Positions 1,222 through 32,000 of a DNA stretch of 32,000 nucleotides are shown here, one piece after another. A model generated the notes under the pieces. It was not told where the DNA came from, ran no database searches, and saw nothing but the letters and a program-made list of their open reading frames with translations. Position 1 is the stretch's first letter. Each line of letters starts with the position of its first letter. The stretch spans positions 1,080,001 through 1,112,000 of the forward strand of contig NZ_OW441264.1 of NCBI RefSeq assembly GCF_936981045.1, read 5' to 3'. Source of the stretch: Candidatus Saccharimonadota bacterium. Lineage in GTDB: Bacteria; Bacteroidota; Bacteroidia; Cytophagales; Amoebophilaceae. The position numbers were made by a program, and so were the translations under genes.

Positions 1222-2223
1222 ACCTCAGTTCGGGATTAGACGTATTGTGAACCAGTCATATATATATTAGTTATAGAAGGTTTTTTCTCTTTTAGTGCAT
1301 AAGCTGTAATTCCAGCTATCAAATTGACTGGAAAATTAGGTATGCTTCTATGCCTGGAATGTTCTATCTGGCTAATATTTTTGAGCTGATCTATAATAGT
1401 TTCAATTATAGATCGTTTTCTAAGCATCAGTTTATCCCAGAGTGGCATAAAAGCATTTTTCATATTTTTTCTGATCTGGGTAATGAGTTCCACGCCTTTC
1501 TCGATCAGTTTTTCAAATAAATCTTTGCTTATGTAACCTTTATCGGCAAACATTTTACCCATGAAGTGTTTACATAAATTTTCTACAGGAAGCCTATCAT
1601 TAGTTTTACCTGTGGTCAGTTGAAAATTCATAATTTCTCCTAAATCATTGACTATCAAGTGCAACTTTAATCCAAAAAACCAACCGGTGCTGGTTTTACC
1701 TTTAGTAGCAATCGATTTAAAAACCCTGTGCGTATAGGCTCTTTTGATATGGCAAACCTTGATGGCTGTTGCATCCATAAAATAACAACCTGTTTTTGTT
1801 TTAGCAAGACTTTGTGTAAAACAGTACAAGGGAGCTAACGTTCTTTGGATCAGTTCTATAAATCTATTCTAGCTTACTAACTTTCCAAATTTACTAGAAT
1901 GAAATTGCCGTAAATGAATATAATAAGACTTAAAATTTCTAAAACCAATCACATGAAAGGCAATAAGAATAGTCATTATTTCACTCAAAGTTAATGAACA
2001 AGTTCTAGTGGGTTTTCTTTTAGAGTTGGTTAACAGTTGTTTTTCCATATACGGCATAAACTTTATGAGAAATTCATCAACAGCATAATATATTTCAACT
2101 AACTTTTCTACATTCATAACTAGCTCCTTTGGGTAATCTGGTTAGTATTTTTTTATCTCCAAATTTAAAACACAAAGGAGCTTTTTAAAGCTATTTTTTA
2201 ACAAGCTAATCCCGAACTCACGT
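1222..2223 (-). mobile_element. IS982-family IS, copy 1 (1002 bp)
   Basis: Termini ACCTCAGTTCGGGATTAG (1222..) and CTAATCCCGAACTCACGT (..2223) form inverted repeats starting with AC. It is near-identical to 6063..7065. Confidence 0.85.
1236..2117 (-). pseudogene. IS982-family transposase with an in-frame TAG
   Basis: ORFs 1869..2117 and 1236..1829 are one frame split by a stop at 1869..1871. Copy 1 reads AGC TAG AAT where copy 2 reads AGC TAC AAT. The motifs YFMDATAIKVC, WFFGLKLHLIVN and ADKGYIS fit an IS982 DDE transposase. Confidence 0.85.
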
Positions 2224-2491
2224 TAGTAGCGTCTTTTCTTTTAAGTGAAGTTTTGGATATATATTGGGTATTATTCGGCCATTAGCATAACAAAATTCTC
2301 AAAAGCAGAAAGATGATTTTTAGCTCCGATTACTTGTCCTTTTTGAATCATACGAATGTTTTCTATCCCTGCAATGGTAATGGCTGCAGACTTAAAACAC
2401 TTAAAACTAAGCATAGGTTTTAGCCGTTTTTTGATAAACCTATGATCTTGTTCAACTCTATTATTCAAGTATTTGTTTTGAAATATTTGAA

Positions 2492-3772
2492 TAGTGAGGC
2501 CGTTGTGATAGATTTCTATTATAATATTTTTAGGGTTGTTTAGACTGATTTTTGGTATTAAAGTGGTATTAATTTTATTATTTATTGATTTTTATGTACT
2601 TTTATTGCATTTTAGACAGACCATTCCCCTAAAGACCTCTTAATATGATATTTGGCGACCTGTATAAGTTATAGGCTATTGCTTCGATAATGTGTTGCGT
2701 ATGAGTTTTAGCAAGTCCTATGTAGCGAGCTCCTGAGCTTCGGAACCAACTTTTAATACTTCCAAATACACGTTCTACTTTATACCTGGTTTTAGCTACC
2801 AATGTATTAAACCGTTTAGCAGTAGGTGATAAAGGATTATTTCTAGTAGCTTTCTTCTGAATAGCTGATTTTAAGGCTTTATTCTTTAATAAGGTTTCAT
2901 TAGGTGATCCGCTATAGCCCTTATCTGCATATAGCCTACTACCTACTTTTAGCTCTACTTTATCCAATAAGACTTGTAAATGAGCACTATCATGACTAGA
3001 TGCTTTTGTGGTACTGACTGCTAGGACTAAGCCTTCTTTACTTTCCACAAGGATGTGACGCTTATACCCATAGTAGAGATTATCTCCTTTTTTTGTCCAA
3101 CTCGCTTCTGGATCTACACCTTTTTGATAACTTTCGGCTACAGTTATAGTGCCATCTTCATGGAGATCATAGCTTTTTTTACCTTTAGGGCGCCTAGCGG
3201 TAGGCGTAATAGAGGCATCAACAACTGCACCATGTTGAACTAATACACCATGACTAGATAGTTGATCGTTAATTATTTTCAATAACCTTTCTAGGACCTG
3301 CTTCTCCGTAAGCGCAGTCCTAAACCTGCTTAATACGCTATGATCTGGAACAGAACTATCCATGGAAATACGACAAAATCTGCTGAAAGTGATACGATCA
3401 TTTACTTCTTCTTCTACTTGATAGTCACTCAGAGCATACCATGTTTGAAGCAACAGCATTTTAAATAAAAGAAGCGGGCTATAAGCTGCCTTTCCTGATA
3501 AACACAAACCTTTAGGATAATACAAGAAAAGTTCTTTTTCTATTACTTTCCAAGTAATCAGCTTATTAAGCTGATCGAAAAAAGTATGCTTACACTTACG
3601 TCGACTGGCTGAAATATCTGCAAAACTTAATTGATTATTTGTTTTGACGGCCATAACAATATTATTAAAAAGCTTAAGTTTAAACGATTAAAGAATCAAC
3701 CTAATTTAACCATTGTATAACACTAAAAGTCACTTTTTATAACAAAGCTTAAAACTCTATTGCAACAACCTC
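2492..3772 (-). mobile_element. IS5-family IS (about 1281 bp) inserted into the IS6 transposase gene
   Basis: The IS6 sequence ...ATATTTGAAT|GGTATGATC is split here. GAAT is present on both sides (2488..2491 and 3773..3776), a 4-bp target duplication. Imperfect terminal repeats are GAGGCCGTTGTGATAG and CTATTGCAACAACCTC. Confidence 0.75.
2629..3654 (-). CDS. IS5-family DDE transposase, 341 aa, apparently intact
   Basis: Uninterrupted ORF. LLLQTWYALSDYQVEEEVNDRITFSRF, YGYKRHILV, LYADKGYSG and YKVERVFGSIKSWF...RYIGLAKTHTQ follow the IS5-group pattern. Confidence 0.85.
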   Translation of the reverse strand: MAVKTNNQLSFADISASRRKCKHTFFDQLNKLITWKVIEKELFLYYPKGLCLSGKAAYSPLLLFKMLLLQTWYALSDYQVEEEVNDRITFSRFCRISMDSSVPDHSVLSRFRTALTEKQVLERLLKIINDQLSSHGVLVQHGAVVDASITPTARRPKGKKSYDLHEDGTITVAESYQKGVDPEASWTKKGDNLYYGYKRHILVESKEGLVLAVSTTKASSHDSAHLQVLLDKVELKVGSRLYADKGYSGSPNETLLKNKALKSAIQKKATRNNPLSPTAKRFNTLVAKTRYKVERVFGSIKSWFRSSGARYIGLAKTHTQHIIEAIAYNLYRSPNIILRGL

Positions 3773-4326
3773 GAATGGTATGATCTTGATCAAGTTCTGT
3801 ATTGATCGTATCAAGGGCAGCTTTATTACTACCGTTTTTGTCAATTACTACTTTCTTAGGAATATTATTTTCTGTGATCGCCTTACGAAAAAAAGAAAAA
3901 GCTGCAGACTTGTCTCTATGCTCAGATAGAAAAAAGTCAACTGTATCACCATAACGATCTACTGCTCTATATAAATAGATTCACTTCCCGTTTAGTTTAA
4001 CATAGGTTTCATCCATTCTCCAACTACCACCAACTGGTCGCTTTCTTTTTCTTACTGCTTCATCTATAAGAGGAACAAACTTAATAACCCATCTTTGTAG
4101 CGTAGAATGATCAACTCTTGCGCCTCTCATACGCATCATCTCTTCCAAATCTCTATAGCTCAAGGAAAAACGACACTTCATCTAGACAAATAACAGGATG
4201 ACTTCTGCTGAAGAACAATAGCCCTTAAAATAAGGTAATAATTTGGGCGAAATATTAAACATAATAACTACTTTTTTAACTGCAGATGCTAAAATAATGA
4301 TTTTTTAGAATAAACGCGACAAAACC

Positions 4327-4679
4327 TCTCTAAGCAAAAGAATTATCAACCAATCAAAAAAAGTAAAAATAAAGTTTATAGTATCCATGAGCCTGCTGTC
4401 TACTGTGTCAGTAAAGGTAAGGCTTCCCATCTCTATGAATATGGTTGCAAGGTACAATTTACACTAACCCATAAACAGGGATTAATTGTATCCACGGAAG
4501 CTTTACATCCTAATGTATATGATGGACATACCTTGCAGAGGAGTTTATTACAAGCAGAAAAACTATATGGTACTAAGGTGAAATGTGCCTTTGTAGATAA
4601 GGGCTATAAAGGACATAATATACCTAGTAATGCATGTACTATATTTATAAGCGGCTCTAAAAAAGGGATAACACCTGCT
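4327..4679 (+). pseudogene. Fragment of another IS5/IS4-like DDE transposase, cut on both sides by IS ends
   Basis: My translation reads ...KVYSIHEPAVYCVSKGKASHLYEYGCKVQFTLTHKQGLIVSTEALHPNVYDGHTLQRSLLQAEKLYGTKVKCAFVDKGYKGHNIPSNACTIFISGSKKGITPA. No start codon. It is bounded by the IS6 IR (4326) and the IS256-B IR (4680). Confidence 0.55.
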
Positions 4680-6025
4680 GGAAGTGTTCTATAAACTGTG
4701 TCACATCTCCTGTTCATCTCAACGTCTCTTTTAATCTACCGGAAAAAAAGATGTCTATCTGAGATATGGTCAACGCCCAGTTTCGCAGCGGCATAGTCCA
4801 TTTATCCTCGATCTTCTTTATGGCACAATATACTAATTTATACAAAGCATTTATACTGGTAAACGCTCCTTTTGTCTTAGTAAACTTCCTAATCTGCCTA
4901 TGCAAGCTTTCTATAGGATTGGTGGTATAAATTAGCCTTCTGACAGAATCTGAATACTTAAAATAACCAGACAAATGTTCCCAATTATTTTGCCGAGATT
5001 TGGTAACCATTGGATACTTCCCCTCCCATTTTTCTTCTAATTCCAATAGATAATGCTCAGCAACTTCCTTACTTGAAGCTTGATATATTTGCTTTAAATC
5101 AGTTAAAAAACGTTTTACGTCTTTGATAGCTACATACTTGAGTGAGTTTCGTATCTGATGTACTACACAGACCTGCACTTGTGCATTAGGGAAAACGCTA
5201 TTTATGGCTGAAGGAAAGCTTTTTAGGCCATCAACACAGGCAATAAGGATATCTTCTACACCTCTTTCCTTAAGCTCGTTAAGTACACCCAACCAGAAGT
5301 TAGCCCACTCACTTTCAGACAAATAAATCCCAATACTTCTTTTTTACCCTCTTGATCTATGCCTAATAAGGTATACATGCATTTGCTTACACATCTGCCA
5401 TCTTCTTTTACCTTAAAAAACATCCTATCCATGAAAACTATCGGATAAACTGATTGAAGAGGGCGGTTACGCCATTCATTTATTATCGGTAACAAGCTAT
5501 CTGTAATAGATGATATTTCAGCAGCTGATACTTTATGATCATAGATCTCTTCAACATGAACGGCTATAGATTTATAGCTCATACCACTAGAAAACATGCT
5601 TAAGATCTTGCTTTCCAGCTCAGGATGTAGGCTTGTTTGACGCTTTTTAACTATTTGTGGATCGAAACTACCTGTCCTATCCCTAGGAGTTAGCAGATCA
5701 AAGGAACCAGAACTTGTACGTAAAGTTTTAGAGCTTTTGCCATTTCTTCTATTATTTTCTGTTGAATCACTAGATAAATGGTGTGCCATTTCACCTTCTA
5801 GACTTGCCTCTAGAAGCTTTTTTATCAGAGGCGTTAAAGCACCACCTTTTCCTGTTAAAGGCTTACCTAAACGGATGGAGCACAAAATATTTTCCTCCAG
5901 AAATTTGTAATCTACTAAACCAACATAGGAATTGTTCTTATTTTCTTCCATGTCTAAAACCTTTAATGTTTATTTAATTAATTTATAACTTTTTATCGCC
6001 TTGACACAGTTTATAGAACACTTCC
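4680..6025 (-). mobile_element. IS256-family IS, type B (1346 bp)
   Basis: Perfect 24-bp inverted repeats GGAAGTGTTCTATAAACTGTGTCA at 4680..4703 and 6002..6025. No matching direct repeat in the flanks. Confidence 0.85.
4714..5951 (-). pseudogene. IS256/mutator-family transposase with a frameshift
   Basis: ORFs 5256..5951 and 4714..5322 overlap in different frames. The join ...GIDQEGKKEVLGF / YLSESEWANFWLGVLNELKERGVEDILIACVDGL needs one extra T in GGATTTATTTG near 5320..5330. PRDRTGSFDPQIVKK and NPIESLHRQIRK are family motifs. Confidence 0.8.
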
Positions 6026-6062
6026 ATCTTAATCTTTATATGCTAAAGGTATGAGTCTGTCA
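6026..6062 (+). mobile_element. 37-bp internal fragment of the type A IS256-like element, opposite orientation
   Basis: The reverse complement matches 411..447 (TGACAGACTCATACCTTTAGCATATAAAGAT...) except for one extra T. It is sandwiched between the IS256-B IR and the IS982 copy 2 terminus. Confidence 0.5.
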
Positions 6063-7065
6063 ACCTCAGTTCGGGATTAGACGTATTGTGAACCAGTCAT
6101 ATATATATTAGTTATAGAAGGTTTTTTCTCTTTTAGTGCATAAGCTGTAATTCCAGTTATCAAATTGACTAGAAAATTAGGTATGCTTCTATTCCTGGAA
6201 TGTTCTATCTGGCTAATATTTTTGAGATGATCTATAATAGTTTCAATTATAGATCGTTTTCTAAGCATCAGTTTATCCCAGAGTGGCATAAAAGCATTTT
6301 TCATATTTTTTCTAATCTGGGTAATGAGTTCCACGCCTTTCTCGATCAGTTTTTCAAATAAATCTTTGCTTATGTAACCTTTATCGGCAAACATTTTACC
6401 CATCAAGTGTTTACATAAATTTTCTACAGGAAGCCTATCATTAGTTTTACCTGTGGTCAGTTGAAAATTCATAATTTCTCCTAAATCATTGACTATCAAG
6501 TGCAACTTTAATCCAAAAAACCAACCGATGCTGGTTTTACCTTTAGTAGCAATCGATTTAAAAACCCTGTGCGTATAGGCTCTTTTGATATGGCAAACCT
6601 TGATGGCTGTTGCATCCATAAAATAACAACTTGTTTTTGTTTTAGAAAGACTTTGTGTAAAACAGTACAAGGGAACTAACGTTCTTTGGATCAGTTCTAT
6701 AAATCTATTGTAGCTTACTAACTTTCCAAATTCACTAGAATAAAATTGCTGTAAATGAATATAATAAGACTTAAAATTTCTAAAACCAATCACATGAAAG
6801 GTAATAAGAACAGTCATTATTTCACTCAAAGTTAATGAACAAGTTCTAGTGGGTTTTCTTTTAGAGTTGGTTAACAGTTGTTTTTCCATATACGGCATAA
6901 ACTTTATGAGAAATTCATCAACAACATAATATATTTCAACTAATTATTTCTACATTCATAACTGGCTCCTTTGGATAATCTGGTTAGTATTTTTTTATCT
7001 CCAAATTTAAAACACAAAGGAGCTTTTTAAAGCTATTTTTTAACAAGCTAATCCCGAACTCAGGT
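6063..7065 (-). mobile_element. IS982-family IS, copy 2 (1003 bp)
   Basis: Termini ACCTCAGTTCGGGATTAG and CTAATCCCGAACTCAGGT. It is collinear with copy 1 and one nucleotide longer. Confidence 0.85.
6077..6959 (-). pseudogene. IS982-family transposase with a +1 frameshift after codon 4; a 273-aa ORF from an internal Met (6077..6898) remains
   Basis: Copy 1 reads ATGAATGTAGAAAAGTTAGTTG and copy 2 reads ATGAATGTAGAAATAATTAGTTG (start at 6957..6959), giving MNVEIIS-stop. The rest is intact, so activity from Met21 cannot be excluded. Confidence 0.65.
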
Positions 7066-7466
7066 TATGAAAGAAACCTCCCCTATATCGAGCAGAAATA
7101 TGGTCGCACTTCAAAAGAAGTTCAGGAGTGTAGAGGCCGGGACAAACGCCTTGTCGCTGGTATCTAGGGCCAATATGGTGGAGGAAGTCGTGTTGGCGAA
7201 GTAGACGAAGGGTACGTATCAGGGTAATATACACCTTCCCAAAGGCCAGGTTGATTAGAACGTGGCCCACGAATAAAACCACCCCTTGTAAAAAGTTACG
7301 ATGAGAAATCACATCTTGCAGTTGATCAGAAAAACAGCATGTTTGAAGCCCGCGCAGAGGGCAAGTTCTGTTTTTCCAGCAGTAAGGTGTGGTTTCAGCA
7401 ACTTTTTGCCATAGGGCTTGATTTTTTGGCTAGTTTTTGATCCAGCAAAAAATAGCATACAAATCC
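7066..7466. repeat. Long structured intergenic repeat, copy R1
   Basis: Three parts: a GC-richer arm (7066..7281), a foldback (7282..7417) and a GATC hairpin with terminus (7429..7466). The arm is related to 21234..21548 (inverted). The foldback CCCCTTGTAAAAAGTT...AACTTTTTGCCATAGGG and the hairpin GCTAGTTTTTGATCCAGCAAAAAATAGC are related to 26251..26338, 28862..29046 and 14840..14911. Confidence 0.6.
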
Positions 7467-7467
7467 A

Positions 7468-8949
7468 TCAAGACAATTCAAATGAATCATTTAACGCATT
7501 GGCCTTGCTCGAATGAATGACAAACTGTTCCGGTTGAGCGGTAGAAGGGGACATATCCGCATCTATAAACTTCATATATCGGCCCATAAATTGCAGATGA
7601 ACCTGATCTAATGCACCATTCCGATGCTTGGCAACAATAACCTCTGCTAGCCCCTGTGTAGGATTACCCAACTCATCCTCTGTTAAGCCATAATATTCTG
7701 GTCTATATAAGAATAGGACTAGATCCGCATCTTGTTCAATAGAACCCGACTCACGTAAATCAGATAATTGAGGCCGTTTGCTCCCTCCACGTGTCTCTAC
7801 TGCCCTACTTAATTGAGAAAGTGCCACCACTGCAATGTCCAACTCTTTGGCAATGTTTTTAAGCGCACGTGAAATCGAAGCAATCTCTTGTTCACGGTTG
7901 CCCCCTCCTCTATTAGGATCGCCTGACATAAGCTGCAAATAGTCAATAACAACCAGTTGAATATCATGTTTGGCCTTAAGCCTTCTACATTTGGTGCGTA
8001 GTTCAAAAACAGAGAGGGCAGGTGTATCATCTACGTAGATCGGAGCATTGGAGAGTTCGGCCGTTTTATGAAGCAATTGTTCCCACTCATGGTCCATTAA
8101 TTTACCTTGCTTTATTTTTTCACCCGCTAACTCTGCTTCAGCTGATATCAATCGATTGACCAATTGTAATGCACCCATTTCTAAGGAAAAAATAGCTACG
8201 GGTAACTTATGGTCTATAGCTGCATTGCGTAAAGCAGAGAGTACAAAAGCGGTTTTACCCATACCAGGTCTAGCTGCAATAATAATCAAATCAAACTTTT
8301 GCCAACCAGAGGTAATACGGTCTAAAGCGGTAAACCCACTTGGAATACCAGTCAGCCCATTAGTGCGCATGCGACGGTTATGTAAACTATCAAAGGCTTC
8401 TACCAATAATGAACGTATCTCTAGATAACGCTTGCGCATATTGCCATCCGAAATCTCAAATAGTGCCTGTTCAGTACGATCTAAAGTATTGAAAACATCC
8501 ATAGTAGGATCATAGGCATACTTCTGAACCATAGTGGAAATCTCTATTAACTTTCTGCGCATGGCATATTCTAGAATAGCCCTAGCATGAAATTCAATAT
8601 TGGCTGAAGAGCTAATGCGCGTCGTTAGATAACTTACATAATAACTTCCGCCTACTGCATCCAATTTACCATCTTTGCGCAACTGATTGACTACCGTAAG
8701 CATATCTATGGGCTCTGAATCATTAAACAGTTGTACGATGGCTCGATAAATTTCTTGATGGGATTCTTTATAAAAACTCTCAGGCCGTAAAAGATCAATG
8801 ACGCTCACTAACGCCTCTTTCTCTAACATCAATGCACCCAATACGCCCTCTTCTAAATCTAAGGCATGTGGAGGATATTTTGCATTGATCGCAAACGTGT
8901 CAGACGGATTAGATGGTGCCGCTTCTAAGTCTTTAGTATATGTTTTCAT
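7468..8949 (-). CDS. dnaB: Replicative DNA helicase DnaB
   Basis: 493-aa ORF. N-terminal PPHALDLEEGVLGALML, Walker A AARPGMGKTAF, and LVVIDYLQLM and SQLSRAVE motifs. Confidence 0.95.
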   Translation of the reverse strand: MKTYTKDLEAAPSNPSDTFAINAKYPPHALDLEEGVLGALMLEKEALVSVIDLLRPESFYKESHQEIYRAIVQLFNDSEPIDMLTVVNQLRKDGKLDAVGGSYYVSYLTTRISSSANIEFHARAILEYAMRRKLIEISTMVQKYAYDPTMDVFNTLDRTEQALFEISDGNMRKRYLEIRSLLVEAFDSLHNRRMRTNGLTGIPSGFTALDRITSGWQKFDLIIIAARPGMGKTAFVLSALRNAAIDHKLPVAIFSLEMGALQLVNRLISAEAELAGEKIKQGKLMDHEWEQLLHKTAELSNAPIYVDDTPALSVFELRTKCRRLKAKHDIQLVVIDYLQLMSGDPNRGGGNREQEIASISRALKNIAKELDIAVVALSQLSRAVETRGGSKRPQLSDLRESGSIEQDADLVLFLYRPEYYGLTEDELGNPTQGLAEVIVAKHRNGALDQVHLQFMGRYMKFIDADMSPSTAQPEQFVIHSSKANALNDSFELS

Positions 8950-15067: not shown

Positions 15068-15721
15068 TTATACCTCGTTTTTATGAACTGCATTATATAA
15101 TACATCAAGACACCTAGGGTGGTTATTCCAGTTAGCTGTATCAAGTGGGCTGTTCCCATACTTATTTTTTATCATTATCTGAATACCTGTAGCATCCACT
15201 AATGTTTTAACGACATCCAGATGACCTTTAGAGGCTGCATAGTATAATGGGGTGTTGTCATGCTGATTTTTTATATTGACATCAATGCCTTTGTTGGCCA
15301 ATAACGCCTTAAGCACCTCTACATGACCTTCAAATGCTGCATAATGCAACGGAGCGTTTTTGTACTTATCTTTGACATTCACATTAATCTTTACATCCTT
15401 CAACAACGCTTGTGTCATCTCTAAATGACCTGTGTATGATGTATAATGAAGTGGGGCATAGGTATCTTTATCTATTGCATTTACATTAATAGTAGTTGAC
15501 CCTGCTAGCAGTACTTTAAGTACCTCTACATGCTCCTCAACCACGGCATAATGTATTGGCGTGTTATCATAGTTATTTTTTGCATTTACATCATTTCTTT
15601 TGTCTTGCAACAACAATTGAACTTTTTGCCAATCACCTTCAAAAGCTGCCACATGCAGGGGAGTGTCTCCATATTTATTCCTTTGATCTATACTCATATC
15701 GATACCTGAATTTTGTTCCAA
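15068..15721 (-). CDS. Ankyrin-repeat protein (about six ANK repeats)
   Basis: Tandem ~33-aa units: TPLHVAAFEGDWQKVQLLL, TPIHYAVVEEHVEVLKVLL, APLHYTSYTGHLEMTQALL, APLHYAAFEGHVEVLKALL, TPLYYAASKGHLDVVKTLV. The track start is TTG; the first ATG is at 15697. Confidence 0.85.
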   Translation of the reverse strand: MEQNSGIDMSIDQRNKYGDTPLHVAAFEGDWQKVQLLLQDKRNDVNAKNNYDNTPIHYAVVEEHVEVLKVLLAGSTTINVNAIDKDTYAPLHYTSYTGHLEMTQALLKDVKINVNVKDKYKNAPLHYAAFEGHVEVLKALLANKGIDVNIKNQHDNTPLYYAASKGHLDVVKTLVDATGIQIMIKNKYGNSPLDTANWNNHPRCLDVLYNAVHKNEV

Positions 15722-16039
15722 AATATGTTCAATAGTTTACACTGCATTAAATTATTAATGGGTACATTCCCTAAGTATAACAACCTAAGCTAGCAACTTG
15801 AAAAATGTCAAAGGCAACTAACCTATCCCTATGCCTATTTTGTGCACTAGTAAACATTAGCAAAATAACTTACGCATTTGGTTAGTGCTTTTAATTTAGT
15901 AAATCTTTATAAAAAATCCTTTTATGGCATTAAAATACAATCAGATTAAATTGGATCAAGCCTATAGAGGCCACCCATCTAGTATCTGTTCAGGCCAGTA
16001 GTCCTACAGCTTCCACTTCAACTGTTTTTCTGTTCAGCT

Positions 16040-16209
16040 ATAAGCTGCACTTTCTAGTCCTAATTTTTTGCAAGGGACGATTTTTCTTGTTTTTAGGCAG
16101 TATGGCCAAAAGGCTGAATGGGTACCGAAACATTGGTAATATAATGATCCGTATATATTTTTTTGTTTAATATCCATAGGGCCATTGTTGTCTTTATATG
16201 AAACCTATC
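16040..16209. repeat. Degenerate partial copy of the long intergenic repeat (R6), ending at the MITE A boundary
   Basis: TTTTTTGCAAGGGACGATTTTTCTTGTTTTTAGGCAGTATGGCC parallels CTTTTTACAAGCAGCGGTTTTCTTGTTTTGGGGTAGTCTTGCC at 21263... GCACTTTCTAGTCCTAATTTTTTGC resembles the CTTGATTTTTTGC motif. Confidence 0.4.
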
Positions 16210-16451
16210 AACGTGAGTTCGGGATTAGATTATTTTTTCATTTGATAATCAATATTAATAAAAATTTATAAAATTTGTTTTATTAGACAGTTAAATAGGT
16301 AGTTGAATAATAAATAATTGTGGTAATCAGTTTATTATATATATTATATTTATAAAATTAGATATAAAAACTTGTTAAATAGGTGCAAATATTAACTAAA
16401 TAATTGATATTAAATTGTTGTAAATCAGTCAAATAAATCCCGAACTCACGT
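16210..16451 (+). mobile_element. MITE A: ~240-bp non-autonomous element with IS982-like termini
   Basis: ACGTGAGTTCGGGATTAG...AATCCCGAACTCACGT termini match the IS982-like IR. The interior is very AT-rich with no ORF. It is the reverse complement of 16807..17046. Confidence 0.8.
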
Positions 16452-16806
16452 TAAAAGGATAGCAAATGGCAGTATGTTGAAGCTAATTAAACAAACCCTA
16501 ACAACGTCAATAGCAAAACAAGGTAAAATTACATGCAAGAAAGTTGGAGTACCGCAAGGATCACCAATATCACCGTTGTATAGTGATATCTACCTAAATG
16601 TTATAGACCAAGTGTGGCACTCAAGGGGGTATCCAGAAAAGCTAAGCGCAACCTTGCATAGGTATTGTGATGATGCAATTTTGGTATGTCGTAAGAGTGC
16701 TAGCTTAGCGCTGGAGAAATTCACAGAATTAGCAAAGAGGTTATCGCTCATTATTAACCACCGAAAGACACGAATAACGAAACTGAAAGAAGGTTTTAAC
16801 TTCATA
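16452..16806 (+). pseudogene. Reverse transcriptase fragment (group II intron / retron-type RT, palm motifs only)
   Basis: The frame is open across the whole insert. GVPQGSPISPLYSDIYLN (RT motif 4), RYCDDAILVC (YxDD, motif 5) and LIINHRKTRITKLKEGFNFI (motifs 6-7). The N-terminal RT motifs and the thumb/X domain are absent. MITE ends cut both sides. Confidence 0.75.
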
Positions 16807-17046
16807 ACGTGAGTTCGGGATTTATTTTACTGATTTACAACAATTTAATATCAATTATTTAGTTAATATTTGCACCTATTTAACAAGTTTTTATATCTAA
16901 TTTTATAAATATAATATATATAATAAACTGATTATCAGAATTATTTTTTATTCAACTACCTATTTAACTGTCTATAAAACAAATTTTATAAATTTTTATT
17001 AATATTGATTATCAAATGAAAAAATAATCTAATCCCGAACTCACGT
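16807..17046 (-). mobile_element. MITE B (inverted relative to MITE A)
   Basis: 240 bp. I count 4 substitutions versus 18991..19230, and about 5 substitutions plus 1-2 single-nt indels versus the reverse complement of 16210..16451. Confidence 0.8.
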
Positions 17047-17577
17047 TATTATATAGTTCCAAATTTCTGCTACTGGTAACATTGCATCGCCTACAAAAAC
17101 AAATAGGCCCATTATGCATATAAAAGATACTATAATGAGATGACAAAAACTGCTATACAAGAAAACTTTTTTGGTTTCAATGGGACCAGAACACATGTAG
17201 ACCCTATGTATAGTTCGGCAATCAGAAACTTCAGAAAAAGGAAATGGGATGAATAAAAGCAAATGCAATAGTTGCCCATTAGAATGGCACAGGCTACTAA
17301 GTTGAAATTTTGCTTGCTTTTGCAGCAAGGATACAATTTCTAAAACAGATTTACCTGTTTTTATAAACATAAGCTTAGCAATAAGGAAAATAATAGCAAT
17401 AAAGGTTATAAATTGCCATACATCGGTATTGGTAACAGAACGAATGCCCCCCAAAGTCGCATAAACAATAAGCACTAAAGTGGACAATATAGTAACGGTT
17501 TTACGATCCATTAAATCCATATACGTAGTGGTAATCAAGTACTTTTCATTTAGAAAAGGTGTATTGAGTAGCATCAT
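17047..17577 (-). pseudogene. Fragment of a sodium:solute symporter-family membrane protein, C-terminus removed by MITE B
   Basis: ATLGGIRSVTNTDVWQFITFIAIIFL resembles the SSS-family GG..AV..TD..Q segment. Only ~177 codons remain. The frame runs straight into the MITE terminus, whose ACG TGA supplies the stop. Confidence 0.45.
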
Positions 17578-17792: not shown

Positions 17793-18905
17793 ATGGTTCC
17801 CCTCACTGAAAAACACTATCGATTGGCACTTTCATTAGTGCCCGGTATAGGCTGTGCCTGGTTAAGAAAATTATTAGCTTATTTCGGAAGTGCCCAAGCA
17901 GTATTTGCAGCTGCACATAAAGGTAACACGTTACTACCCTACAAAATAGCCCAATCTATTACCGCAAGCAGTAGCCTTTCCCAAGCAGAAAAGATCCTCC
18001 AATTGTATGAAACAGAAGGCATCCAATTGCTGACAACAGAGGAAGAGACCTATCCCAAACGGTTGCTAGAGCTACCAGATCGTCCTTCCCTGCTTTATTA
18101 TAAAGGGCAAGCGACATTGAACCAACAACGTATCGTGACCGTTGTAGGTACTAGGCAATTAACATCCTATGGACAAGCATCGATTACCAAATTTTTAGAA
18201 CAACTCCTTCCCTATCATCCGCTTGTAGTCAGTGGCCTAGCCTATGGAACAGATATATGGGCCCATAAGCAAGCATTGGAAATGGGGCTAACTACAGTAG
18301 CCGTATTGCCAACAAGCTTGCAGCACATCTACCCCACTGCACACAAAAAAATAGCCCTGGAAATGTGTGGTGTAAAAGGTGGCTTACTCACAGAGTACCC
18401 CATAGAAAGTGGACTAGGCCCCCATACCTTTGTGGCACGCAATAGAATTTTAGCTGGTCTAGCAGATGTAACCATAGTTATGGAGGCCAAAGAAAAAAGC
18501 GGTGCATTAATCACCGCCTACCATGCCAATAATTACCACCGGGAGGTTTTTGCATTGCCGGGTAGTATTTACGCAGCTACTTCTGCAGGATGCCATCGAT
18601 TGATTAAAAGAAATCAAGCACACCTCCTGACCCATATAGATGACTTAGCTTATATCATGAACTGGACAGTGCACCATCAACGCCAAGCAGATGCTTACGC
18701 GAACTATCCACTTACAGCATCAGAACAAATGGTCTTAAAACAGCTGCAGCAAGCCATTGAACCCATCACTATTGAGACGCTAACCTTTACTACTGCTTTG
18801 CCACCCGGTACATTACAAGCAGCATTATTGTCACTAGAATTACAAGGCTTATTACGTGCACTACCAGGTAACCGTTTTACATTAGCCCCTATCTATAAAC
18901 AATAG
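17793..18905 (+). CDS. dprA: DNA-processing protein DprA (Smf)
   Basis: 370 aa. VVGTRQLTSYG, VVSGLAYGTDIWAHK and ARNRILAGLADVTIVMEAKEKSGALITA are DprA Rossmann-domain motifs. Confidence 0.9.
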   Translation: MVPLTEKHYRLALSLVPGIGCAWLRKLLAYFGSAQAVFAAAHKGNTLLPYKIAQSITASSSLSQAEKILQLYETEGIQLLTTEEETYPKRLLELPDRPSLLYYKGQATLNQQRIVTVVGTRQLTSYGQASITKFLEQLLPYHPLVVSGLAYGTDIWAHKQALEMGLTTVAVLPTSLQHIYPTAHKKIALEMCGVKGGLLTEYPIESGLGPHTFVARNRILAGLADVTIVMEAKEKSGALITAYHANNYHREVFALPGSIYAATSAGCHRLIKRNQAHLLTHIDDLAYIMNWTVHHQRQADAYANYPLTASEQMVLKQLQQAIEPITIETLTFTTALPPGTLQAALLSLELQGLLRALPGNRFTLAPIYKQ

Positions 18906-18990: not shown

Positions 18991-19230
18991 ACGTGAGTTC
19001 GGGATTTATTTGACTGATTTACAACAATTTAATATCAATTATTTAGTTAATATTTACACCTATTTAATAAGTTTTTATATCTAATTTTATAAATATAATA
19101 TATATAATAAACTGATTATCAGAATTATTTTTTATTCAACTACCTATTTAACTGTCTATAAAACAAATTTTATAAATTTTTGTTAATATTGATTATCAAA
19201 TGAAAAAATAATCTAATCCCGAACTCACGT
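18991..19230 (-). mobile_element. MITE C
   Basis: 240 bp, same orientation as MITE B. Flanked by ATATA on both sides (a possible 5-bp target duplication, weak in AT-rich DNA). It ends 4 nt before the ATG at 19235. Confidence 0.8.
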
Positions 19231-19234
19231 ATAT

Positions 19235-20041
19235 ATGTTTAAAGTAGCTACCTTATACAAATTTGTGCCCCTAGATGACCTAGTAGCGCTACAGAAGAAA
19301 CTTCAATCTATATGCAAAGCACTAACCGGCACACTGCTGATTGCTTCAGAAGGGATTAATGGTACCATTGCTGGCCTGCCTGATCTACTAGACGATGCCA
19401 TCGCCCAGATAGAAGCCATTCCATCATTTGGTGACTTGTGGTATCAATATTCCAAAGCTAACCATAAGCCATTTCGTCTCTTAAAGGTTAGGATTAAAAA
19501 GGAAATTATAGCCATGCACCAACCGGAGGTCCCATCCATGCTACGACGTGGCCACTGCGTCTTAGCTTCAGACTGGAACAATAGGATGGATCAGTCAGCT
19601 GTTGTAATTGACGTTCGCAACGATTACGAACATCGATTGGGAAGTTTTGAAGGGGCATTAAATCCTAAAACAACCTACTTTAGCCAATTCCCTGCCTTTG
19701 TTGAACAAAATTTAACCCCCTATAAAGATCAGCCTATTGCTATGTTTTGTACGGGAGGGATCAGATGTGAAAAGGCCTCTGCTTATATGCTTTCTAGTGG
19801 CTTCAAAGAGGTGTATCAACTAAGTGGTGGCATTCTACAATATTTAGCCCATACGCAAGAAGCGCTATCCAGATGGAAAGGGGAATGTTTTGTTTTTGAC
19901 GAACGCATATCCCTAGGTCATGGATTAAAAAAAGGCAGTAGCCTGCTTTGCTATGGCTGCCGTATGCCTTTAACTACAGAAGATCTAGATGAAAATTACC
20001 AATCTGGTATTCGATGCAAATTTTGTCTAAAAGACAAATAG
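19235..20041 (+). CDS. trhO: Rhodanese-domain protein of the UPF0176/YceA (TrhO, tRNA U34 hydroxylase) family
   Basis: 268 aa. N-terminal ATLYKFVPL...LLIASEGINGTIAG, rhodanese active-site loop FCTGGIRCEKA, and a C-terminal Cys cluster CYGC...CKFC. Confidence 0.8.
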   Translation: MFKVATLYKFVPLDDLVALQKKLQSICKALTGTLLIASEGINGTIAGLPDLLDDAIAQIEAIPSFGDLWYQYSKANHKPFRLLKVRIKKEIIAMHQPEVPSMLRRGHCVLASDWNNRMDQSAVVIDVRNDYEHRLGSFEGALNPKTTYFSQFPAFVEQNLTPYKDQPIAMFCTGGIRCEKASAYMLSSGFKEVYQLSGGILQYLAHTQEALSRWKGECFVFDERISLGHGLKKGSSLLCYGCRMPLTTEDLDENYQSGIRCKFCLKDK

Positions 20042-20068: not shown

Positions 20069-20901
20069 GGTTCTGTCGCGTCTATAGTTTTCTTAGTATA
20101 GGTTTTTCGTTTAAGTCAAATTTTGGATATTATGCGGCCATTAAGATAGCAAAGTTCTCAAAAGTAGAAAGATGATTTTTAGCTCCTCTTACTTGTCCTT
20201 TTTGAATCATACGAATGTTTTCTATCCCTGAAATAGTAATGGAAGCAGAATAAAAATTCTTAAAACCCAGCATAGGTTTTATCCGTTTTTTGATAAACCT
20301 ATGATCTTGTTCAACTCTATTATTCAAATATTTGTTTTGAAATATTTGAATGGTATGATCTTGATCAAGATCTGTATTGATCGCATCAAGGGCAGCTTTA
20401 TTACTACCGCTTTTGTCAATTACTACTTTCTTAGGAATATTATTTTCTGTGATCGCCTTGCGAAAAAAAGAAAGCGTTGAAGACTTGTCTCTATGATCAG
20501 ATAGAAAAAAGTCAACTGTATCACCATAACGATCTACTGCTCTATATAAATAGATCCACTTCCCGTTTAGTTTAACATAGGTTTCATCCATTTTCCAACT
20601 ACTACCAATTGGTCGTTTTCTTTTTCTTACTGCTTTATCTATCAGAGGAACAAACTTAATAACCCATCTCTGTAGCGTAGAATGATCAACTCTTGCGCCT
20701 CTCATACGCATCATCTCTTCCAAATCTCTATAGCTCAAGGAAAAACGACACTTCATGTATACAAATAACAGGATGACTTCTGATGAAGAACAATAACCTT
20801 TAAAATATGGTAATAACTCGGGAGAAATATTAAACATAATAACTACTTTTTTAAATACCGATACTAAAATAATCATTTTTTAGAATAAACGCGACAGAAC
20901 C
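20069..20901 (-). mobile_element. IS6-family IS, complete (833 bp)
   Basis: Inverted repeats GGTTCTGTCGCGTCTATAG (20069..) and AATAAACGCGACAGAACC (..20901). No matching 8-bp direct repeat in the flanks. Confidence 0.85.
20130..20837 (-). CDS. IS6-family transposase, intact (235 aa from MFNISP)
   Basis: HTH region LSYRDLEEMMRMRGARVDHSTLQRWV, DDE core WKMDETYVKLNGKWIYLYRAVD, VIDKSGSNKAA and NNRVEQDHRFIKKR. The track ORF starts 13 codons further upstream. Confidence 0.85.
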   Translation of the reverse strand: MFNISPELLPYFKGYCSSSEVILLFVYMKCRFSLSYRDLEEMMRMRGARVDHSTLQRWVIKFVPLIDKAVRKRKRPIGSSWKMDETYVKLNGKWIYLYRAVDRYGDTVDFFLSDHRDKSSTLSFFRKAITENNIPKKVVIDKSGSNKAALDAINTDLDQDHTIQIFQNKYLNNRVEQDHRFIKKRIKPMLGFKNFYSASITISGIENIRMIQKGQVRGAKNHLSTFENFAILMAA

Positions 20902-21110
20902 GTTTTACTCGTTACTCCCTATTTGGACGATAATTCAACTAGTGTTCAATCTTCTTTTAGTAAAGCGAATACTATTTTAGTCTTTTCTTCCGAACTAAAA
21001 TTTCTAATCTTATTTCTGACCATTAGATAGCTCTATTTTAATATCATTAAACTAAAATATACAGAAACAAATTATCATCTTTTTTGTCCGAATTTTTCAG
21101 TCCAGTATAA

Positions 21111-25606: not shown

Positions 25607-25679
<73 letters not shown>

Positions 25680-25786
25680 CGTCTGATCTATTTGGGTAAA
25701 CCATCAACTATTTCTTGCTATTACTAGTAGTTGAGCGGATGGTGCACTTATTTTTGTGTGTGCTGTCTTCACAGCCATGCAGCTTT

Positions 25787-25869
25787 GCCAGGATGGTGGA
25801 ACTGGTATACACGCAAGACTTAAAATCTTGTGGCTTTTGGCCATGCGGGTTCGATTCCCGCTCCTGGTA
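25787..25869 (+). tRNA. tRNA-Leu (anticodon TAA), class II with a long variable arm
   Basis: Acceptor GCCAGGA/TCCTGGT (G1-T72 wobble), anticodon arm CAAGA-CTTAAAA-TCTTG, variable arm TGGCTTTTGGCCAT, T arm GCGGG-TTCGATT-CCCGC. Confidence 0.8.
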
Positions 25870-25899
25870 CACATTCTACTCTTTTTGCTTGTTGTATTG

Positions 25900-31906: not shown

Positions 31907-31952
31907 GGTTCTGTCGCGTCTATATTTTCGTTAGTAACGTCTTTTCTTTTAA
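31907..31952 (-). mobile_element. First 46 nt of an IS6-type left end, cut by MITE D
   Basis: GGTTCTGTCGCGTCTATATTTTCGTTAGTAACGTCTTTTCTTTTAA. Its 3' part overlaps the sequence that starts the truncated copy at 2224. Confidence 0.7.
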
Positions 31953-32000
31953 ACGTGAGTTCGGGATTATATTATTTTTTCATTTGATAATCAATATTAA
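31953..32000 (+). mobile_element. MITE D, first 48 nt (continues beyond the window)
   Basis: ACGTGAGTTCGGGATTATATTATTTTTTCATTTGATAATCAATATTAA differs at one position from 16210..16257. Confidence 0.75.

Follow-up and report, generated by a model that had tools for sequence, protein, structure and literature searches.

A head-to-head pair of MITECca01 copies around a group II intron reverse transcriptase fragment in Cardinium cOegib

The MITE pair and its parental element

The 32-kb window analysed here (32,000 nucleotides, the whole stretch of DNA under study) belongs to the chromosome of Cardinium cOegib, an endosymbiont found in the spider Oedothorax gibbosus. At positions 16210-17046 it contains two copies of the MITE (miniature inverted-repeat transposable element) MITECca01, which lie head to head, in inverted orientation, around a 355-nt segment of the reverse transcriptase (RT) gene of a group II intron. 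The mobile elements of this strain have been annotated by hand-curation (Halter et al., 2022, Microbiol Spectr, PMC9769881). MITECca01 was described there as an element of ∼240 bp with 169 copies, together 3.5% of the chromosome, that is derived from the IS982-family insertion sequence (IS) ISCca4 (68 copies, 7 of them intact); it resides mostly in intergenic regions or inside other mobile elements, which it often disrupts. The unit formed by the pair and its cargo is a non-functional relic of conflict between such elements.

The repeat search returned two sets of inverted arms, 16261-16453/16805-16997 (193 nt, 93%) and 16210-16283/16974-17047 (74 nt, 100%), both belonging to a single gapped repeat. 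By blastn, copy A and copy B on opposite strands were 97.9% identical over 243 nt, with four substitutions and one 1-nt indel between them. With the element limits ACGTG...CACGT taken from Fig. S1 of PMC9769881, the two copies and the spacer have the coordinates given in Table 1 and the whole unit measures 836 bp. The AGATTA-type end lies at both outer limits of the pair and the TTTATTT-type end at both inner limits, and all four 16-17-nt terminal repeats of A and B are perfect. The 17-nt terminal repeat AACGTGAGTTCGGGATT occurred 11 times in the window and not once in 100 shuffles. The first-pass annotation, made from the letters of the window, had described an 837-bp unit of two inverted ∼240-bp MITEs with outward AGATTA-type ends, and the repeat search and blastn reproduced this description to within 1 nt. 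Its proposal of a composite-element geometry likewise agreed with the four perfect terminal repeats: as in a composite transposon, two copies of one element with intact outer ends bracket a cargo.

A fresh inverted duplication of a single MITE was considered as the origin of the pair and rejected. The arms agree at all but 5 positions, and at 4 of these 5 the unrelated copy C sides with B, to which it is the nearer; A and B are therefore independent copies.

Both arms are copies of the published element, since its Fig. S1 reference (PMC9769881) could be aligned with copies A, B and C over their full length, with 93-94% of the alignment columns identical; the machine-read reference lacked 6 nt lost in text extraction, and most mismatch columns are such gaps. 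Over the first 24 nt, 23 positions were identical. The genome is the same one, and the length (241 bp for A, 240 bp for B and C) and the 16-nt terminal inverted repeats are those of MITECca01; the repeats read ACGTGA(A/G)TTCGGGATT, are nearly identical to those of ISCca4 and, at the left end, run on into AGATTATT. Inside copies A, B and C neither a Pfam or NCBIfam domain nor a long open reading frame (ORF) was found, in agreement with the absence of coding capacity in the published element. The high copy number in this Cardinium host was also apparent, with four copies in the window.

The first-pass annotation had assigned IS982-type termini to the MITEs, and this assignment held, as ISCca4 itself is present in the window. 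Its transposase matched the IS982 profile NF033520 at 8e-79 (264.6 bits, cut-off 130), and the two copies, of 1002 and 1003 bp, compare with a published length of 1002 bp and have the ends ACCTSAG and ACGTGAG, which start with the 5'-AC of IS982-family elements. The sequence common to the MITEs and the window copies of ISCca4 is confined to the terminal ∼25 nt. A cognate transposase is thus available in the same cell, encoded by the copy at 6063-7065, and the published annotation counts 7 intact copies (PMC9769881). In the window copy, two in-frame stops precede the ATG of the 273-aa ORF by 16 and 18 codons, after an upstream Met (M*K*LVEIYY...; window 6899-6965), and the length given by ISfinder for the ISCca4 transposase is 291 aa; judging from these codons, the N-terminus may be damaged despite the complete DDE domain.

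Table 1. Features of the unit, its surroundings and related elements, in window coordinates
Feature	Position	Strand	Description
MITECca01 copy A	16211..16451	+	241 bp; AGATTA-type end (left inverted repeat, IRL) outward, left; both 16-nt terminal repeats ACGTGAGTTCGGGATT perfect
Group II intron RT fragment	16452..16806	+	355 nt; 118 codons at 16453-16806; palm-region motifs PQGSPISP and YCDD
112-aa ORF (P0003)	16474..16812	+	starts at internal RT Met; ends in Thr + stop supplied by the ACGTGA terminus of copy B
MITECca01 copy B	16807..17046	-	240 bp; inverted relative to A; AGATTA-type end outward, right
Na+/solute symporter-type gene fragment	17047..17577	-	cut at outer end of copy B; weak TIGR00813 and TIGR03648 matches
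Left flank	15722..16210		489-bp non-coding stretch upstream of the ankyrin-repeat gene; unrelated to RT, intron and symporter
Ankyrin-repeat gene	15068..15721	-	
MITECca01 copy C	18991..19230	-	sole window element with a clear target duplication (ATATA, 5 bp)
dprA	17793..18905		
UPF0176/rhodanese gene	19235..20041		
MITECca01 copy D	31953..32000	+	cut by window end
ISCca4 copy (IS982 family), parental autonomous element	6063..7065	-	1003 bp; 273-aa ORF with complete DDE domain
ISCca4 copy	1222..2223	-	1002 bp; transposase split into two ORFs; IRL ACGTGAGTTCGGGATTAG, identical to MITE termini
IS5-type gene	2629..3654		between the ISCca4 copies
IS256/Mutator-type gene	4714..5951		between the ISCca4 copies; frameshifted
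IS6-family (IS240-type) transposase gene	20130..20876		probably ISCca2
tRNA-Gly(GCC)	25607..25680		
tRNA-Leu(TAA)	25787..25870		

The enclosed RT fragment and the second junction

The cargo is a single open frame of 118 codons with the motifs VPQGSPISP and YCDD. It matched Pfam RVT_1 at 1.8e-13 and the group II intron RT/maturase profile TIGR04416 at 1.3e-26 (93.6 bits, cut-off 300; model positions 148-263 of 353). The cargo corresponds to residues 191-308, or 27%, of an intact 437-aa RT of cOegib (WP_250238295.1, P0199), with 112 of the 118 residues identical (95%), and it was 82% identical to the full-length 457-aa RT of the Nabis limbatus Cardinium (contig L001, 9365-10738). When this 457-aa protein was used as a tblastn query, residues 213-331 were the only part matched in the whole window, and the match stopped exactly at both MITEs. 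The genome encodes at least 26 distinct RT protein sequences, P0199 included.

An RT of the retron or DRT type was rejected, as such profiles scored 1e-15 or worse against 1e-26 for the group II profile and an RT from a group II intron of the same genome is 95% identical to the cargo. The first-pass annotation had read the cargo as an RT palm fragment in one open frame, cut at both MITE junctions, and this was confirmed by the searches of the 118 codons with RVT_1 and TIGR04416 and by tblastn. It had further left the choice between a group II intron and a retron ORF; the first of these stands, and the second does not, the retron profiles scoring far lower.

The fragment shares with the group II intron RT/maturase WP_250238295.1 the YCDD catalytic motif; unlike that protein, it has neither a maturase domain nor a ribozyme. 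A functional group II RT has motifs 0-7 and the X domain, and the cargo lacks the N-terminal RT motifs (1-3) and the thumb/maturase (X) domain. No group II intron RNA (D1-D6) was detected in the window by Rfam, even at E values up to 5, and the intron of the Nabis Cardinium in L001, used as a positive control, gave both RF02005 and RF00029 (D1-D4, D5-D6). By its sequence, the cargo is an isolated internal piece of an intron ORF. Lacking the N-terminal RT motifs as well as a maturase domain and intron RNA, neither the cargo nor the 112-aa ORF within it can act as an RT, and the latter is a pseudogene product, not a working enzyme.

The junction between the RT fragment and the MITE was found a second time in the genome. 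The 90% cluster of the 112-aa ORF (P0003) contained a second, non-identical member, P0064 (WP_250238364.1, 112 aa), from the same 1,137,202-bp replicon; it is encoded outside the window, which holds one RT locus only. Both proteins end in GFNFI followed by T-stop, at a place where intact RT copies continue GFNFIGFYF, and the ACGTGA terminus must therefore lie at the same nucleotide in P0064. The two differ at 3 residues, the window copy having more substitutions than P0064, and they share a V-to-A change that was present in none of 9 other cOegib RT sequences. Judged from these shared features, the RT/MITE junction is identical by descent at the two loci. The shared junction together with the V-to-A change means that at least the RT fragment Met198-Ile308 was copied at least once. 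The symporter fragment to the right of the unit had no second cluster member outside the window, and for this reason the end of the duplication probably lies inside or at MITE B.

Two metagenome scans, one with the RT/MITE junction and one with the MITE end, and one viral scan gave no match, and a scan of genome contigs with the RT gave matches only in other Cardinium strains and unrelated bacteria. The N-terminal remnant of the RT was looked up with 10 guessed sequences (RT residues 1-190 plus a MITE-derived tail, five tail lengths in two variants each); no exact match was obtained, in a look-up that accepts exact matches only and is uninformative.

Flanks and history of the unit

Neither flank of the unit continues the intron. 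On the right, MITE B supplies the last codon and the stop of the ORF 17041-17577 (-), which is otherwise the symporter-type gene fragment. In the related Cardinium contig L013, dprA and a symporter-type gene (P0002, 54% identical) had the same arrangement, and homology to the window stopped at 17046-17047; in L012 the homologous gene spans 2938-7864. The downstream part of the gene, ∼500 bp in L013 and ∼2.7 kb at 2938-5606 in L012, had no counterpart anywhere in the window. For the non-coding left flank, no relative was found in any locus compared. The unit sits at a synteny breakpoint. As for the symporter fragment itself, it is what is left of a far larger gene: the Nabis Cardinium version codes for a symporter domain joined to an extended C-terminal region (846-aa ORF), and that gene (L012) is split by an IS256-family transposase.

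The arrangement as such would be expected by chance in this genome. With 169 copies in 1.137 Mb, 8.9 MITE pairs with a gap of ≤355 bp are expected, 4.4 of them inverted, and IS or MITE copies cut the RT ORFs of cOegib at no fewer than five different sites: after codons 190 and 308 (both in the window), after codon 315 (P0034, whose tail NVSSRLDYFFI is the MITE left end), after codon 327 (P0191, which ends in T-stop) and near codon 388 (P0198, whose tail NLSSGLDVL is the right inverted repeat, IRR, of ISCca4). Given these numbers, two MITE hits in one RT ORF are unremarkable. As its alternative, the first-pass annotation had offered that two MITEs independently hit a decaying group II intron or retron ORF; such hits are statistically ordinary and are needed as a first step in either history.

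The history that we favour has three steps. In the first, which the locus itself shows, two separate MITECca01 copies, mobilised in trans by the ISCca4 transposase, entered one group II intron RT ORF in opposite orientations, after codons 190 and 308. In the second, the transposase would have used both outer ends to move or copy the MITE-RT-MITE module of 836 bp as a composite; all four ISCca4-type ends of the module are intact, and its size is close to that of the parental IS. In the third, one flank at the present site would later have been replaced, erasing the target duplication along with the symporter gene's downstream part, either through a deletion or flank exchange by recombination with a further MITE copy among the 169 or through intramolecular transposition. 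Composite movement explains why the fragment is cut exactly at the MITE ends, why no intron DNA lies outside them and why the RT/MITE junction is present twice. It needs fewer events than recombination only, but has to assume a later event for the missing duplication. We put the probability of composite transposition as the route of the second step at about 0.45, which is nearly equal to that of recombination between MITEs.

Several observations weigh against this history. Direct repeats of 3-9 bp were searched for with the boundaries shifted by -2 to +4 at either end, and none of ≥4 bp was found around the unit, so that the target-site duplication of a composite transposon is lacking. The flanks read ...CCTATCA on the left and TATTATA... 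on the right, with CA and TA adjoining the outer ends, and the only 3-bp match, TAT, lies at shifted element limits. The symporter gene did not resume left of MITE A in permissive blastn and tblastx searches of the left flank, and with symporter homology absent left of 16210 there is no continuous target from which an empty site could be reconstructed. Because the gene stops at MITE B and does not resume beyond MITE A, at least one extra event is required and a simple insertion does not account for the site. The target duplication, which for ISCca4 is 6 bp according to ISfinder (PMC7335449), is present at copy C (5 bp); of the window's three other complete ISCca4/MITE copies, two also lack it, namely both ISCca4 copies. 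Flank exchange may be common, and this alone could give the same picture. Further, the second copy of the junction is seen here as a protein, and a MITE A and non-intron flanks at its locus are putative. Six RT fragments of cOegib, P0003 and P0064 among them, start at the same internal Met (MLKLIK), and the shared start is for that reason not evidence for a shared left junction; this common start may go back to an inherited disruption near codon 190. The composite-transposon reading of the first-pass annotation accordingly gained from the copied junction of P0064 and from the intact ends, and lost from the absent target duplication and the interrupted symporter gene.

A target duplication of its own at each MITE, which would have pointed to independent insertions, was looked for as well, and neither A nor B had one: no repeat of ≥3 bp flanked MITE A alone, MITE B alone or either ISCca4 copy of the window. 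These missing duplications bear on the history of the copies and not on their assignment to the IS982 family.

In the closest alternative, which we consider almost as probable as composite transposition, the unit decayed in situ, was shaped by homologous recombination only and never moved as a composite. An intron with both MITEs, or an ancestor with the MITE at codon 308, would have been duplicated by retrohoming, with the RT acting in trans, or by segmental duplication; the rest of the intron would then have been lost on each side by deletion or inversion between A or B and similarly oriented MITECca01 copies, one located upstream of the ankyrin gene, the other within the symporter gene. The absence of target duplications at the unit and at either MITE fits this sequence of events, as does the synteny break exactly at the outer end of MITE B, and duplications missing in two of three other complete copies are what would be expected if 169 near-identical copies often exchange flanks. 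The ∼8.9 chance pairs and the five or more cut sites in RT ORFs speak for it in the same way, and the Met start shared by six RT fragments could reflect a codon-190 disruption inherited by a whole intron subfamily. Against these points stands the number of events, as two extra MITE insertions, two deletions and a separate duplication for P0064 would be needed. Both deletions would have to remove several kb harmlessly, and the duplication seems to have occurred without the symporter flank.

That the module is a live MITE-pair composite transposon, which the ISCca4 transposase has already copied in trans to at least one other site in cOegib, is slightly less probable than either of these histories. 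The locus is ordinary debris of a genome rich in repeats, though the MITE-bounded piece may have moved as one unit.

An assembly artefact, in which the 355-bp RT segment was misplaced between two collapsed 240-bp repeats, is very improbable. High-copy repeats do lie on both sides of the segment and neither flank continues it, but the assembly combined long with short reads into one 1.14-Mb chromosome and was then hand-curated (PMC9769881), and long reads easily span 836 bp. The two arms differ at 5 positions, and the cargo was unlike every other cOegib RT sequence compared, which means that it was not pasted from another locus.

Maintenance of the unit for a function, as a long hairpin RNA or double-stranded RNA (dsRNA), a regulatory cruciform or a truncated RT-domain protein, is the least probable explanation: the predicted ∼240-bp stem is very stable and the 112-aa ORF is open and carries a protein annotation, but the stability is a trivial consequence of the repeat, the ORF has no RT motifs 1-3, thumb/X domain or partner RNA, the window copy is more substituted than its sister P0064, and a promoter and terminator scan gave fewer promoter-like sites than shuffled sequence and no terminator. 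The single-stranded unit folded into the stem at -407.6 kcal/mol (z = -39), a value that follows from the pairing dictated by the inverted repeat itself, and a 355-nt spacer disfavours cruciform extrusion. The cruciform or dsRNA stem pointed out by the first-pass annotation is thus correct as geometry, and evidence of a function for it was not found. No function is expected for the unit, and the long inverted repeat is a potential site of inversion or instability.

Comparison with known systems and other features of the window

The components of the unit, MITECca01 and ISCca4, are already published; neither a head-to-head pair around a captured fragment nor the duplication of such a module is described in the main text or Fig. 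S1 of PMC9769881. Counterparts of the arrangement are known from Acinetobacter, where class 1 integrons lie between two copies of a 439-bp MITE and a 76-kb region lies between MITE-297 copies in pA297-3 (summarised in PMC6382973). There, too, two non-autonomous MITEs bracket foreign DNA that a transposase acting in trans could move as a whole. In contrast to the cOegib unit, which is IS982-derived and has a dead 355-nt fragment and no target duplication, the published Acinetobacter cases have functional resistance-gene cargo and target duplications. With IS-bounded composite transposons of the Tn5 and Tn10 type the unit shares inverted terminal elements, intact outer ends and a cargo set by the insertion points; unlike theirs, its terminal elements carry no transposase, it has no target duplication and its mobility is putative.

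If the module moved whole, endosymbiont MITEs would package and relocate DNA and not only inactivate genes, which would offer a route to rearrangement and gene shuffling in reduced genomes thought to be closed to exchange. As a live composite, it would imply that MITE pairs could capture and shuffle arbitrary DNA between them, and it would be the first case in a maternally inherited endosymbiont. If it did not move, the locus is a clear example of MITE copies as breakpoints for deletion and synteny loss in genome reduction. Either way its value is descriptive, as the components are published and no cellular function is expected.

In PMC9769881 no MITECca01 was reported from other Cardinium strains. 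Sequences with ∼73% identity to its interior and a degenerate left terminus, TATGAGCTAGGGATTATA, were observed in NZ_OZ239769.1 of the Nabis limbatus Cardinium (L001, 10919-11125) and in CP101108.1, plasmid p_B of Cardinium sp. DF (20836-21054; L014, 2501-2719). The first of these relics begins right at the 3' end of a group II intron. Both have the flanking sequence GTCGRCCCTGAAGTATTA in common, and they may be part of a larger repeat.

Copy C looks like a simple, intact insertion and occupies a 329-bp gap between dprA and the UPF0176/rhodanese gene, 4 nt before the start codon of the latter. Another composite-like arrangement is formed by the two ISCca4 copies (window 1222-7065), which have the same orientation and bracket 3.8 kb made up of further transposase genes, one of the IS5 type and a frameshifted one of the IS256/Mutator type (Table 1). 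A 20-nt motif, TAGTARCGTCTTTTCTTTTA, was found directly right of the ISCca4 copy at 1222-2223 (2224-2243) and directly left of MITE D (31932-31951), giving 2 matches where 0 were expected; another repeat may end here, or the motif may be left over from an exchange of flanks between elements of the ISCca4 type. Elsewhere, the window contains an IS6-family (IS240-type) transposase gene, which is probably ISCca2, and the genes for tRNA-Gly(GCC) and tRNA-Leu(TAA).

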